Position numbers and translations under genes: made by a program | Shown: positions 4,897-11,536 of the stretch, piece after piece | How positions within the stretch are numbered: position 1 is the stretch's first letter | Layout: the number at the start of each line of letters is the position of its first letter | NCBI RefSeq assembly: GCF_057098645.1 | Contig: NZ_CM169472.1 | Direction: 5' to 3' (one strand) | DNA length: 64,000 nucleotides | Notes under the pieces: model-generated | What the model was told of the DNA's origin: nothing | The model's database searches: none | The model's input: the letters and a program-made list of their open reading frames with translations, nothing else

Positions 4897-5149
4897 TGTG
4901 CTGAACTGGGCATTCGCACGATGTTACTTCCCTGTAATTCAACGATGCGTAATTTTTCGGGGAATCGTGCACTGTGATAAGGCGTGATCTTTCATGGGGT
5001 GAAAATCCCACCAGGTGACTGTCGTTCCAGCCGGTAGCAGTCAAAGCAGTCGTGTGGGTAACAAAGCGGCTGATGTATTTGATGAAGAAGCTGTAGGTGT
5101 TTCAGTGAGTATACAGGTCATAATGTGAGTGAATCTGAGCAGGCCTCGA

Positions 5150-5930
5150 AAGAACCAATTGGAAGGACAACCCATTAGGAATTCCCAGAAAACAAGACAG
5201 GCATAGTGAGATGTGATCTAATTGATTGTGCTAGCAATTTCAAGGATATCACCACTATGCCTGCACGTTCATTATGCCAAAAATTCCTTAAAAACATACT
5301 GGCCACTTTGCATTTCTACCATCAAAAATCACTGATTGACGCAACAAATGCTGTAATAAATGGCGCTTCCCTCACGCTTAGCAGCATCGGGCGTCATTTA
5401 ACCAGACAGCATTAGTTAAAAACAAGATAAAGCGGGTGGATTGACCGTTGGGGAATTCTCAACTGAAAAATGATCTTCCCACCATTTTTCAGTTGGTTAC
5501 TCAAAAAAATACGCTGAGAATGTTCGTGTTGTTGTACGCCTTCGCCAGCAGTGGCAGGATGTTCAGGAGGAGTGTCGGCAGGCAGAGGTCGGATCAGGAG
5601 AGCGGCTGCGTAATGCCCTGCTGAATGTGGATTATACCACCAGTTTTGAACTGCCTTTTCGTCTGCTTTTAACCCGCACGTCACAGCTGATTGCTGTGCT
5701 TTGGGAAGAATGGGATATCAGCCAGAAAAATGTGGTGTTTAACGATAAACGCTTTGGTTGCGTGTATAGCCTGAAGGCCAGTCTTTCCGGCGTGCGGATA
5801 CATTCCGGTATCATCTGTCTCACCGTATTCGCCGGATGGTTGGGAATGAAATACATCATCGCCTTGGCAGCAGATTGCCCGGAAAGTGAAAGCGCTCCGT
5901 GAATGACTTAAGTATGCGCTAGAGGAGGGA
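5150..5930 (+). mobile_element. degenerate IS4-family (IS10-like) transposase remnant, frameshifted and 3'-truncated
   Basis: Short ORFs 5206-5415 and 5627-5902 carry IS10-like N-terminal motifs (ASLTLSSIGRHL cf. IS10 TLTLTELGRNL; IAVLWEEWDISQK cf. IVLVDWSDIREQK); boundaries approximate. Confidence 0.4.
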
Positions 5931-6082
5931 TTACTGGTGACCGCACTGGACGGTCTGTTCTGGTCTGGTAGTCAGCGTATTGCGGAAGATATTCTGTGTC
6001 GTTACGGGGAAGTCATCTTCACAGGGATCTTCAGTCAGTTAGTATTACCGACATTCATTCACCAACTTACCGGAGATAATCG

Positions 6083-6412
6083 ATGTCAAAACCCCGATGG
6101 ACCATTGAACAGAAAAGGCAGCACGTTGCTGCCTGGCGCGCCAGTGGTCTTACACGTCAGCAATACTGTGAACTCAACGATATTCCCTTCACATCACTTC
6201 GCGAATGGCCGCAGGATGTCGCAAAAGCTGAACGCCGGGCAAATGAACCGACCGTTCTTCCCGTTCATATTGCGCCACCACTGCATGCTGATGTACCACA
6301 GCCCGTCACGAATGAGCCAGTCACGCTCTTCCTTCCCGGCGGAGTACGGATGTGCTGTCAGCCGTCACAACTTACCGATGTCTTCAGGGCGCTCAAATAT
6401 GCTCAGTCCTGA
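6083..6412 (+). CDS. IS66-family accessory protein TnpA (orf1)
   Basis: 109 aa, HTH-like (WTIEQKRQHVAAWRASGLTRQQYCELNDI); stop overlaps tnpB start. Confidence 0.65.
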   Translation: MSKPRWTIEQKRQHVAAWRASGLTRQQYCELNDIPFTSLREWPQDVAKAERRANEPTVLPVHIAPPLHADVPQPVTNEPVTLFLPGGVRMCCQPSQLTDVFRALKYAQS

Positions 6413-6791
6413 TAATGTCTTCATCGCGATTAAACCTGTTGACATGCGCCGGGGCATCGACACACTGACGCAGTATATACAGGATGAACTCCGGTCGACA
6501 TGGCATGAGGGAGCCGCCTTCGTCTTTGTTAACAAAGACCGTTCGCGTATCAAAGTTCTCCGGTGGGATAAACACGGGGTGTGGTTGTGTACCCGCCGTC
6601 TTCACAAAGGCAGCTTCCGCTGGCCACGTGCAAATGATGCTGCCTGGCACCTCACTCCCGACGAGTTTAACTGGCTGATTGCCGGTGTTGACTGGCAGCA
6701 GGTTAAGGGACATGGCCTGACGAAATGGGTCTGGCAAAATGAACCTGAACTGCGCCCTGAAAACACGCAAAACACACTGCTAACTCACTGA
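6399..6791 (+). CDS. IS66-family TnpB (orf2)
   Basis: In-frame ATG at 6399 within track ORF 5937-6791; sequence MLSPDNVFIAIKPVDMRRGIDTL... resembles IS66 orf2. Confidence 0.6.
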   Translation: MLSPDNVFIAIKPVDMRRGIDTLTQYIQDELRSTWHEGAAFVFVNKDRSRIKVLRWDKHGVWLCTRRLHKGSFRWPRANDAAWHLTPDEFNWLIAGVDWQQVKGHGLTKWVWQNEPELRPENTQNTLLTH

Positions 6792-6797
6792 AAAATA

Positions 6798-8441: not shown

Positions 8442-8480
8442 ACCGCCCCGGGTTTCCTGGAGAGTGTTTTATCTGTGAAC

Positions 8481-9371
8481 TCAGGCTGCCAGATCATCGT
8501 TTCCGATGGAAGCATAATAAGCTTTTTCTGCTTCTGCCGGAGGAGTATGGCCCAGCCTTTCCAGCAATCGTCGATTGTTATACCAGTCCACCCACGTGAG
8601 TGTGGCCAGTTCCACTTCTGCACGGTTTTTCCAGCTCTTACGGTGTATTACCTCCGCTTTGTAAAGACCATTGATGCTCTCCGCCATCGCGTTGTCATAC
8701 GAGTCGCCTGTACTTCCTGTTGATGCCAGTAATCCGGCTTCCTTAAGCCGCTGTGTGTAGGCCAGCGATACATACTGAGAACCTTTATCACTGTGATGGA
8801 CCGTGCCGGACGGTCGACGGGCCCATAACGCCTGCTCCAGTGCATCCAGCACGAATGTCGTCTCCATGGACGATGAGACCCGCCACCCCACAATGTATCC
8901 GGCAAACACATCAATGATGAACGCCACATAGACGAAGCCCTGCCATGTGCTGACGTAAGTAAAATCAGCCACCCACAGCTGGTCAGGTCGTTCTGCCACG
9001 AACTGACGGTTTACGCGGTCGCCTGCGGCAACGGCTTTCCGGCTGATGGTCGTACGGACCTTTTTACCCCGGAGAACACCGGCAAGTCCCATAACCGCCA
9101 TGAGACGTGCCACAGTGCATCTGGCCACTCTGATACCTTCCCGTAACAACTGACGCCAGACTTTACGCACACCGTATACCTTGTGATTTTCATCGTATAC
9201 GCGCTGTATCTCTTTCTTCAGCCAGTCATCGCGCTGCGCACGGGCACTGCGTTTATCCGGATGATGTCGCTGTTGCTGACAGTGGTAATACGTTGACGGG
9301 GCAATATGCAGTTCGCTGCATAGCGGTCCGACCCCGTACTGCTCACGCAGCTTATCCAGCAGTGGCATCAT
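8481..9371 (-). CDS. IS629 transposase OrfB (DDE integrase domain)
   Basis: 296 aa with DDE motifs ([25 protein letters not shown]); start overlaps orfA stop; expressed as OrfAB by -1 frameshift. Confidence 0.85.
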
Positions 9372-9694
9372 TTTTTCCAGAGGCGGTCGAACTCCGCCTT
9401 CGCAAAATAAGCGGAAGCCTGGCGAAGGATATCGTTACTGCGGCGCAGTTCACGATTTTCACGCTCCAGCTCTTTCAGACGCTGACGTTCAGCGGTGGTG
9501 AGCCCTCCATCACCGCCCCCGGTATCCCGCTCATGCTGGCGAACCCAGACACGCAGAGTCTCCGGCGTACAGCCAATCTTTGGAGCAATGGAACAAATTG
9601 TCGCCCATTGTGAGTCATATTCGCCCTGACTTTCCAGAACCATACGGACTGCCCGTTGACGGACTTCAGGGGAAAAACGAGTATTTTTAGTCAT
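9368..9694 (-). CDS. IS629 OrfA (HTH / leucine zipper)
   Basis: 108 aa [19 protein letters not shown]...; A6 slippery run (minus-strand GGAAAAAATGATG, approx 9366-9380) at orfA/orfB overlap. Confidence 0.85.
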
Positions 9695-9745
9695 CCTGTT
9701 TACCTCTTTCTCAGGAAGTTTAGTCTCCAGGATTCCCGGGGCGGT

Positions 9746-10156
9746 TCAATCAGTGTTTACTTCCCTGGCCTCGCTACCATTGGTATAGCTACTACAGTCT
9801 TCATCACTGCCACGCTCATTCTCACAGACATGTTTCTCGACCTTTCCAAGATATCTGACGCCTTTTCGCGGAATGGTTTTAATTAGAGAACTCGACAAAC
9901 CAGCGATGTCTAATGCCTTTCTAAGCATGTAAATCTGCCCATAATAACTGCTGTCGCTTACCGAACCTTTCTGCTCCCGCCAAACCTCATTGATAATATG
10001 TTGCTTATCGGATTCTCCCTGTAGTAAAAGGAGTAAAAATCGATAGCCGTTTTCAGACAGATTAATTACATTGCCTGTACTGGTGGTGATACGTCGAGAC
10101 GCTGGGTAAAACTTAACTCCCTGCCCTAAAGAAAAATAAAAACGGTCATCGCTCAT
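9746..10156 (-). CDS. OmpR/ToxR/CadC-type winged-helix DNA-binding protein, probably truncated at IS629 junction
   Basis: 136 aa; winged-helix trans_reg_C pattern (LSENGYRFLLLLLQGESDKQHIINEVW...IYMLRKAL...PRKGVRYLG); stop codon supplied by IS629 terminal TGA; no TM or periplasmic domain. Confidence 0.55.
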   Translation of the reverse strand: MSDDRFYFSLGQGVKFYPASRRITTSTGNVINLSENGYRFLLLLLQGESDKQHIINEVWREQKGSVSDSSYYGQIYMLRKALDIAGLSSSLIKTIPRKGVRYLGKVEKHVCENERGSDEDCSSYTNGSEAREVNTD

Positions 10157-11536
10157 AAGTACCGAACCCTGTTTTCTTCTTCACATGACTACTCATTACA
10201 ACTTTGTATGAAGTAAGATGCAAAATCATATTGTTTACATTAAGTTAAGCAATTATACCGTTTAAACAAAGACAATACGTCTCTTTATTTCTCATAAAAC
10301 CCCAATCCCTTACAGGGCTTATTGAAAATTTAAAAATCACAAATTTCTCAATACTAAAAATGAGATCACATAAGAAATCAAAAAACCTTCTCATCTATTT
10401 TAAGTTTTCCCAACGTAAAATAAGAGCTTTTATTAATAACTGAACCACTTTACTGTTCTATTTGTTCAGGTATTGTATTACGGTGTGCTGAGATCCATAG
10501 GTGCATCCCTGTATCCCGCGATGAGACTAAAATAGTCGTGATTTAAGCTCGTATCAGATTCTTAGTGAATACCACATTTGTTATAATTAAGTGAAAAGAT
10601 ACATTGCTGATTTACATTTTTTGGTTTACAAAATGTCATCACTTACAGAGTTATCGCTGACATATACCTTTAATCTCTTAATCCTTTCGTGTTATTGCAA
10701 TACAACCATCCATAAAGCAGGCTATTTTTAGCAGGAAATACTCAGGTGTCAACATTCGAACCCCAACCCTGAAATATTCATATAAATTAATGATTTTTTC
10801 ATTTATTCACACCTAATCAAAGTATTCAAATTCAGATGATTTTTCTGCTCAACAGACACAAACAGGCAATAATACTCTCCAAAGCGAACAATATTTGGCA
10901 TTACGATTTAATGCTTCATAATCACCAAATCATTTAACTATAAATTTTCTTATTTTTAACGAAATGGTTGGTGTTTTTTTGGAATTAAAAACATACATAA
11001 TATTAACATCTACCGACATTTCACTTTCCGAAAGACGAATGATTTCGAATCCTCATCTACGTTCTCCCATCCCAAATATCTTTATTAATAGGCAGTACGA
11101 ACACTGTTATAGCAAGATTACCTTATTAACCTAATGGAATCCTTTATGTAACAAGTGAAAATAAATTCCTTAAAATTGATTCTCAGCAAATCTTAAAAGT
11201 TCTCATTATTCTGCAAAATCAGCTTTGCGAATAATCTTATGTTTTTGGGAATTTTGATCTGCTCATTGCTCTCGTGAAAAATACAAACAAGAGAAAAAAC
11301 GCCATTCGTCATGAAAAGAACAGACGTAGCAATGTAATAACATACTAAAATTGATCTCATGAAAGTGGGTGCTTTATAACCAGCACAGAAGCTCAGACGT
11401 ATAAATATTAAACAATTTGCATTGTAAAACGGAGACTATGTATTAAGAAGCCAATCGTAAAAACGGTTCCCTGGCGAGATAAACGACAAACAAATGGAAA
11501 GCCGGATGATATTTACCTTCATCCGGCATTATTGAC
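10157..11536. other. 1.38 kb AT-rich tract with no ORF of 60 aa or more; candidate H-NS-silenced horizontally acquired DNA / long regulatory region
   Basis: No ORF in six-frame track; visibly AT-rich versus flanking genes; lies upstream of the winged-helix regulator and downstream of glcA. Confidence 0.5.

Follow-up and report, generated by a model that had tools for sequence, protein, structure and literature searches.

What ends the K-12 gene order at the 3' end of glcA in an Escherichia coli chromosome, and is the break the work of insertion sequence (IS) elements? The question is raised by a 64,000-nucleotide stretch of contig NZ_CM169472.1 (RefSeq assembly GCF_057098645.1), denoted here the window, in which the interval 4897-11536 separates a gentisate module and its LysR-family regulator from glcA. 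An earlier, sequence-only reading placed a synteny break at the 3' end of glcA, where K-12 carries sslE and the type II secretion system (T2SS) genes, and proposed IS-mediated replacement or deletion, given that the breakpoint seemed to coincide with IS elements. Here we show that this reading merged two junctions that differ in age and cause and lie 1.7 kb apart. The K-12 break itself, at 11491|11492, is an old alternative occupancy of a hypervariable site and was not made by an IS element, whereas a copy of IS629 at 8439-9748 is a true rearrangement joint, chimeric between two islands. The coordinates of the features discussed are collected in Table 1.

The window was aligned by BLAST to positions 3105000-3135000 of the K-12 strain MG1655, and junctions and modules were counted in a collection of 5426 complete E. 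coli genomes. The parts of the window that can be aligned to K-12 are 11492-22085 (98.5%) and 30469-34129; to the left of position 11492, there is no alignment to this region of MG1655. The break is sharp and lies 45 bp past the glcA stop codon, so that the sequence-only reading had put it in the right place. The final bases common to the window and K-12 are a GC-rich terminator-like hairpin, GCCGGATGA...TCATCCGGC, beyond glcA. In MG1655, glcA is followed, after 484 bp, by sslE (yghJ), pppA, yghG, the rest of the truncated T2SS-beta cluster, and pheV. A junction of this type between sslE and glcA is present in 4071 of the 5426 complete genomes and is absent from the window, where sslE is not found about 0.5 kb beyond the glcA stop, pppA, yghG and the gsp-beta genes do not follow, and a BLAST comparison with the K-12 locus detected no remaining sslE or gsp fragments. 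In approximately 1060 genomes, the glcA end is wholly missing. O157 Sakai is one example: in this strain, the entire glc operon is lost, and pheV is followed by SpLE3 and then by a truncated pitB. The earlier analogy with O157-type genomes is thus a loose one, given that the window retains the glc operon.

Positions 13300-38000 of the window are 100.0% identical to O145:H28 strains RM13516 and RM12761 and a few others, and at most 98.9% identical to non-O145 genomes. Because of this difference, the window is assigned, by sequence identity, to the chromosome of O145:H28 (sequence type 32, or ST32, type). In each of the four O145:H28-type complete genomes that were inspected, the pheV–glcA interval lacks the sslE and T2SS-beta genes. 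The interval 4897-11536, taken as a single piece, was found in none of the complete genomes.

The 1.74 kb adjacent to glcA (9749-11491) belong to a Tad/Flp-pilus island, of which they form the proximal end, with a truncated regulator gene, for which the stop codon is provided by the end of IS629, and an AT-rich stretch. The AT-rich stretch is 99.5-100% conserved in all 36 genomes having it; an Rfam scan of 4800-11700 yielded no matches in it, and the result of a promoter and terminator scan was at or under the shuffle expectation. The non-K-12 DNA next to glcA (9751-11491) is represented in 41 of the 5426 genomes, in 36 of these over most of its length; it is carried by the O145:H28 group and by roughly a dozen unrelated strains. 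In one such carrier, the baboon stool commensal PapRG-06-5, the flank is base-for-base identical to the window across the glcA-side junction, and the 54-kb pheV–glcA interval encompasses a complete 14-gene Tad/Flp pilus operon, a chaperone-usher-like fimbrial cluster and a full type VI secretion system (T6SS), up to pheV, with no transposase or integrase annotated. This island is contained in locus L007 (1-21790), which serves as the reference for positions in the Tad locus, and in locus L012. Strain 23S01245-7 (locus L018) has the identical glcA-side junction and the entire Tad operon. After the regulator gene, both strains have genes for Flp pilin, A24 peptidase, CpaB, secretin, a TadZ-like protein, CpaF, two TadB/C-like proteins, a TPR protein, TadE, TadF and TadG. 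Through this full gene set behind the regulator, the island resembles the Tad/Flp type IVc pilus loci. The window differs in having no pilus genes and retains no more than the AT-rich leader and 136 regulator codons; Flp pilin, prepilin peptidase, secretin, the TadZ/TadA ATPases and the TadB/C platform genes are all missing, and because the regulator stub and the leader alone survive, the window is not itself a Tad locus.

These comparisons bear on how the K-12 breakpoint arose. The breakpoint cannot be attributed to an IS element because the identical junction is present in PapRG-06-5, with no annotated transposase, and because the nearest IS is 1743 bp away, with the intact proximal end of the Tad island lying at the breakpoint itself. 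The sequence-only reading, which held that the breakpoint coincides with IS elements, had itself named the same junction in an IS-free commensal as the sign of an ancestral arrangement, and PapRG-06-5 provides exactly such a case. The rival explanation, that IS elements directly replaced or deleted sslE and T2SS-beta and thereby made the K-12 breakpoint, could appeal to the IS629, IS66 and ISEc60 sequences that fill much of 5257-9748, and to O157 Sakai, where the right edge of SpLE3 meets the truncated pitB via IS remnants. However, given the distance to the nearest IS, the lack of an annotated transposase gene in the commensal interval, and the lack of any sslE or gsp fragment left behind in the window, we consider this explanation very unlikely.

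In about 0.7% of the complete E. coli genomes, an island with Tad/Flp pilus, fimbrial and T6SS genes is present where most strains have the SslE mucinase and T2SS-beta, which may be of interest for research on colonisation factors; in the literature, we found no paper describing an E. coli Tad island between pheV and glcA. Independent erosion of the same island was observed in CUWW06, an unrelated wastewater strain, in which the Tad regulator gene is cut by IS1 after 456 nt (L006 19951-20406), compared with 408 nt and IS629 in the window. The Tad operon is gone in CUWW06, too, and the regulator stub and the AT-rich stretch are left.

The second junction is formed by the IS629 copy. This copy has the features that define IS629, namely, the length of about 1310 bp, inverted-repeat termini beginning TGAACCGCCCCGGG, a -1 frameshift between orfA and orfB with the ALIL pseudoknot (Rfam, 120.2 bits, 9297-9413), and a DDE (rve) transposase (NF033516, E 4e-94 for orfB and 1e-11 for orfA), and copies in three O145:H28 genomes match it at 100% identity. 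It is not flanked by a 3-4 bp target-site duplication: the flanking bases are GTC and ATC, whereas the IS629 copy in the corresponding island of strain SY033 carries an ATA/ATA duplication. The left flank maps to position 12540 of the SY033 locus, inside the cdiA-CT stub and 808 bp short of the IS629 of SY033, and the right flank corresponds to the regulator gene of the PapRG Tad locus, at position 19999 of that locus. With the target duplication missing and the two flanks derived from different islands, this IS629 is a joint, and a plain insertion is ruled out. The retained IS, the missing duplication, flanks that are non-contiguous in relatives and nested endpoints are those of IS-adjacent deletions or IS–IS joints. 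The earlier proposal of IS involvement is supported in that an IS sits at this rearrangement joint, but it does not hold for the K-12 breakpoint. An apparent 8-bp match between the left IS flank of the window and the flank in strain 95-3192 was discarded, the bases showing an imperfect BLAST extension.

Both IS629 junctions of the window are real and recur in independent draft assemblies, although neither was found in any of the 5426 complete genomes. The 136-aa open reading frame (ORF) spanning the right junction is recorded in 30 index blocks of public assemblies, and the four right-junction contigs that were read match the window at 99.96-99.99% and end 28-77 bp inside IS629. The 535-aa ORF of the left junction was found in four contigs, one of which extends 549 bp into IS629. 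An assembly artefact, whereby two IS629 copies were collapsed and the gentisate side was falsely linked to the glcA side, might be suspected because an O145 chromosome carries about 26-40 IS629 copies, draft contigs break inside IS629, and both junctions are missing from the complete genomes. Such an artefact is nevertheless extremely unlikely, given that each junction is separately real and recurrent and that, in independent sequences (RM13516, RM12761 and two other long contigs), the gentisate module is likewise found beside the Tad remnant and glcA.

Comparison with related strains revealed at least five different IS629 joints at this site in O145:H28, with Tad-side endpoints (given as positions in the PapRG Tad reference locus) stepwise nearer glcA. 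In each case, IS629 lacks a target duplication. Strain 95-3192 has cdiI4' on the left and tadZ' (15379) on the right; in RM13516, the left side is the region downstream of LysR and the right side is tadZ' (15379), with IS629 in the opposite orientation; Z1323HEC0422 joins toxin' to secretin' (16823), and the window joins cdiA' to regulator' (19999). In RM13514, the joint connects RE', a truncated restriction endonuclease gene, to glcA' (21891), so that glcA itself is cut, and in draft contig JZDZ01000084.1, lambdoid prophage genes are linked to tadZ'. Successive or independent IS-adjacent deletions would be expected to leave such a series of endpoints towards glcA. In O145:H28, the IS found most often is IS629 (PMC3893438), which, together with the IEE protein, is linked to IS-adjacent deletions of a few bases to more than 40 kb in enterohemorrhagic E. 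coli (EHEC) (PMC9943667). The IS629 structural polymorphisms of EHEC (Ooka 2009, Kusumoto 2011), as cited in PMC9943667, are similar in the intact IS629, the lack of target duplication, the truncated flanking genes and the nested endpoints. As represented in that source, those studies concern O157, whereas the window derives from O145:H28 and its joint unites modules of two islands.

The extent of the cdiA stub also varies. The stub ORF is retained over 1605 nt in the window, 1332 nt in Z1323HEC0422, 959 nt in RM9872, and not at all in RM13516. The window keeps more of the stub than any O145 complete genome, yet less of the Tad side, and because of this combination it is a sister of the RM9872, Z1323HEC0422 and RM13516 states, not a descendant of any of them. 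With at least five joints, one of them truncating glcA, the pheV–glcA interval offers, in O145:H28, a marker that is compact and highly polymorphic and could aid outbreak-lineage subtyping.

Two observations were made on individual joints. In RM13514, a US outbreak strain, the IS629-adjacent deletion enters glcA (L011 42489-44078), leaving the glycolate permease gene without its 3' end. The same Tad flank base (ATGCGCACCGAT) is abutted by IS629 in opposite orientations in RM13516-type (L004 18294-19603) and 95-3192-type (L002 8009-9318) loci, and both orientations were confirmed by independent assemblies.

On the left side of the joint, the cdiA-CT/IS66/LysR/gentisate segment is, by the gene order in relatives, part of an island integrating at tRNA-Phe genes. 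In SY033, the order is pheU, integrase WP_001218873.1, IS1, fecIRABCDE, orphan modules of contact-dependent growth inhibition (CDI), IS629 with its ATA duplication, cdiA-CT/IS66, LysR, the gentisate genes, Ag43 and others, ending at cadC. The same integrase adjoins pheV in RM13516, RM13514 and Z1323HEC0422, and in RM13516 and Z1323HEC0422, pheV, the integrase, IS1 and fecIRABCDE are located directly upstream of the Tad remnant. The hallmark of a tRNA-Phe island, an integrase next to tRNA-Phe at alternative sites, is therefore seen in the relatives, outside the window: at pheV in O145:H28 and at pheU in SY033, with the same modules after it. The distal end of the island is deleted in all O145:H28 loci seen. 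The tRNA-Phe islands of EHEC and enteropathogenic E. coli (OI-122/SpLE3 and mosaics associated with LEE, the enterocyte effacement locus) likewise have a P4-type integrase next to tRNA-Phe and occur as the same island at either tRNA-Phe gene, and the OI-122-bearing islands share with the O145:H28 island the mosaic modules fec, CDI orphans, gentisate and Ag43. The window differs from these islands in that an internal module, with its polarity reversed relative to pheV, is all that it contains of the island; it has no integrase or att site. O145:H28 has two fec operons, at pheV and leuX.

The position of the gentisate module bears on how the two islands came together. Every O145:H28-type complete genome listed contains exactly one copy. 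In at least 20 O145 genomes (for example, RM9872 5028000-5077000), this copy lies in the pheU island beside OI-122 genes, about 1.35 Mb from glcA; it adjoins glcA only in RM13516 (3672000-3702000), RM12761, two further long contigs and the window. The orientation of the module on the chromosome is the same at the pheU and pheV sites, and at pheV, its polarity is reversed relative to the native order of the island. The single copy, its alternative positions in the same orientation (at pheV in both RM13516 and RM12761) and the pheU island of RM13516, which has a full efa1 and no gentisate module, speak for a move of the module from the pheU/OI-122 island to pheV without inversion, by an IS629-bounded circle or by IEE-promoted excision and end-joining, rather than an inversion in situ of a second, pheV-located copy. 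At the left joint of the moved segment in RM13516, there is no IS and the two sides overlap by 3 bp, which is what microhomology end-joining would be expected to give (PMC9943667). However, the module is 100% identical even among unrelated strains, and because of this, identity does not separate a single travelling copy from differential loss; the RM13516 pheU island shows no reciprocal scar, and the fec-bearing island of SY033 natively has its own gentisate module. We regard this transfer as a possible but less probable route.

Several larger rearrangements were considered and rejected. A single large inversion between the fec and glc loci is out, as RM13516 and Z1323HEC0422 have pheV, the integrase and fec directly upstream of the Tad remnant. 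A double large inversion would invert the gentisate module, yet its orientation is equal at both sites. For a reciprocal exchange of the pheU and pheV islands in RM13516, no reciprocal joint was found at its pheU island. A left context for the window lineage was sought in draft contigs, where no record of the 163-aa junction ORF exists, the Gp2-like protein occurs too widely to discriminate, and the 114-aa ORF matches RM13516-type contigs only.

Altogether, these results make a three-layer history of the pheV–glcA interval quite probable, comprising an alternative island, a tRNA-Phe island, and erosion and joining by IS629. The occupants of the first two layers are seen directly in the loci compared above, as is the chimeric joint. 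In the first layer, old and not driven by IS, T6SS, chaperone-usher fimbrial and Tad/Flp genes take the place of sslE and T2SS-beta, with the boundary just beyond the glcA terminator; the regulator stub and the AT-rich DNA upstream of it are the sole survivors in the window. In the second layer, the tRNA-Phe integrating island settled at pheV in O145:H28, carrying the integrase, IS1, fec, CDI orphan modules, the IS66 remnant, the LysR gene, the gentisate genes and more. For the third, recent layer, we infer both the order and the mechanism of the steps: IS629 copies in the island and in the Tad operon would have recombined, causing adjacent deletions, with a single IS629 in the window linking the cdiA-CT/IS66 stub to the Tad regulator stub as the outcome. 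Against the closest intact references, the window lacks 808 bp on the left side and, on the right side, 4620 bp beyond the commonest O145 Tad breakpoint.

For an island at pheV, the gentisate module points the wrong way; the deletions must therefore have been preceded either by an inversion or by a transfer out of the pheU island. Along one path, the own gentisate copy of the pheV island, as in SY033, would have been inverted between two IS629 copies and trimmed, the pheU copy being lost in this sublineage and the pheV copy in others. Along the other path, the single gentisate copy would have moved from pheU to pheV. Both paths fit.

Several observations weigh against this history. No short-read contig spans the whole IS629, and the linkage of its two junctions comes from the window assembly alone; an intermediate with IS66, cdiA-CT, IS629 and tadZ' was seen in none of the 5426 complete genomes. 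Since the start of the window falls within the gentisate module, the window shows neither pheV nor where the moved segment ends on the left, and the placement of the module between pheV and glcA derives from RM13516, not from the source genome. Finally, the opposite orientations of IS629 at one Tad flank base in RM13516 and 95-3192 are not producible by simple IS–IS recombination because recombination cannot flip the IS against a retained flank.

A more far-reaching scenario appears rather doubtful. In it, a 13-17 kb module of gentisate and LysR genes would have been relocated without inversion between tRNA-Phe islands 1.35 Mb apart, on opposite sides of the replication origin, via IS629 and a microhomology joint, and erosion of the Tad/T6SS alternative to the SslE locus by the same hotspot would have occurred on at least five separate occasions, a pattern that might stem from the pilus being selected against and not from IS activity alone.

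Neither junction is of an unusual kind: hypervariable tRNA-Phe sites and structural polymorphism driven by IS629 in EHEC are both well known. The pheV locus is hypervariable, and the SslE/T2SS-beta cluster has been repeatedly lost or replaced (Decanio et al. 2013, PMC3707838); strain Crooks has fec in place of T2SS-beta, which O157:H7 also lacks (PMC3707838). The present case involves the same pheV–glcA site, with T2SS-beta and sslE absent and a fec-bearing island instead, as in Crooks. It differs in that the glcA-proximal DNA is a remnant of a Tad/T6SS island, the fec part being outside the window. An IS-lined synteny break thus need not be IS-made: in this case, 1.7 kb separate an old island boundary from a recent IS629 joint, and the two are easily merged. 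Beyond strain typing, the significance is small.

Table 1. Features of the window from the gentisate module to glcA (positions in the window)
Feature	Position	Strand	Evidence
Gentisate/3-hydroxybenzoate module: maiA 93-740, fumarylpyruvate-hydrolase-type gene 746-1447, gtdA 1463-2491, mhbT 2503-3861	93..3861	-	ORFs; 99.98% identity to annotated SY033 and RM13516 loci
LysR-family regulator of the gentisate module, 302 aa, PcaQ-like	3988..4896	+	NCBIfam TIGR02424, E 9e-55, below curated cutoff; RefSeq WP_000024636.1 in RM13516
Group II intron 5' fragment (D1-D4 model)	4993..5128	+	Rfam RF02003, 69.9 bits (gathering score 49), full model length
Overlapping remnants of ISEc60 (IS4-like) transposase gene and ECs1377-family gene	~5257..5996	+	RefSeq pseudogenes in identical SY033 sequence; NF052300 positions 37-92 of 190, E 2e-23
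IS66-family remnant: tnpA 6083-6412, tnpB 6399-6791, tnpC 5' half from 6834	6083..7829	+	NCBIfam NF047593, NF033819, NF033517; Pfam on full SY033 ORF
Orphan cdiA-CT stub, in-frame fusion to tnpC: DUF637 end ~7830-7964, PT-VENN ~8022-8168, start of toxin tip	7830..8438	+	Translation; Pfam PF04830 and PF04829 (E 2e-12) on SY033 homologue
IS629 (IS3 family), complete, 1310 bp, no target-site duplication	8439..9748	-	Termini TGAACCGCCCCGGG read directly; Rfam; IS3 transposase matches
Winged-helix (Trans_reg_C) regulator heading the Tad/Flp operon, 5' 408 nt, 136 of 201 codons	9749..10156	-	Alignment to O145 and PapRG-06-5 loci; Pfam PF00486 on full protein
AT-rich stretch of Tad-type island, 1335 bp, 31.9% GC, no ORF >56 aa	10157..11491		Between Tad regulator and glcA
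glcA 3' flank with terminator-like hairpin	11492..11536	-	First K-12-shared bases, true synteny breakpoint
glcA, intact	11537..13219	-	NCBIfam PRK09695/NF007249, 1267 bits, 560 of 560 positions

The items that the sequence-only reading listed to the left of glcA (IS remnants, a toxin stub, a regulator and the gentisate island) were all located, in the region 93-9748. The toxin stub is the orphan cdiA-CT. A single ORF, 6834-8438, consists of IS66 TnpC in its first half and the end of CdiA in its second half, and is cut by IS629. The DDE domain encoded by tnpC breaks off at position 143 of 284, and the IS66 element has no defined left end. The pre-toxin VENN domain of CDI proteins was recognized, along with DUF637, in the SY033 homologue (PF04829, E 2e-12), and the motif in the window reads IAENN; the toxin tip is cut by IS629 after about 90 residues. 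In SY033, the cdiA-CT region extends for a further 808 bp that includes a 72-aa ORF. This segment is not in the window, and no cognate cdiI was found immediately downstream. The group II intron fragment is 136 nt long and starts 97 nt past the LysR stop codon; no D5-D6 match and no reverse-transcriptase ORF were found for it, and it resembles the 5' part of an intron truncated by the ISEc60 remnant.

At the two ends of the 180-kb inversion reported for RM13516 (within 4995001-5275000), one module is present in inverted copies of at least 8 kb, one copy lying in the leuX island and the other in the pheU island. This module contains IS66, a truncated IS3-family element, a truncated YagK-like gene, and zinc-ribbon, Gp2 and helix-turn-helix (HTH) genes.

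To the right of glcA, the gene order was previously described as that of K-12, which holds for 11492-22085 and 30469-34129 but not for the intervening 8.4 kb (22086-30468). This second K-12 break has no counterpart in K-12 because IS5 occupies the place there, between a truncated yghO and yghQ. The genes in the segment encode a fatty acyl-AMP ligase, an epimerase, an acyl carrier protein, a serine palmitoyltransferase, LptF/G-like and YtfJ-like proteins, and hypothetical proteins, and the segment belongs to the '19-gene cluster' reported by Cooper et al. as lost from O157. The adjacent yghO (20983-22125, minus strand) has an internal stop at codon 116 of 380 and is annotated likewise in other O145:H28 genomes. 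The glcF gene (16177-17400, minus strand) is intact in the window, with a (CG)5 repeat near 17364; in 95-3192, Z1323HEC0422 and run ERR769171, this repeat is (CG)4, which results in a frameshift, a slippage polymorphism within O145:H28.

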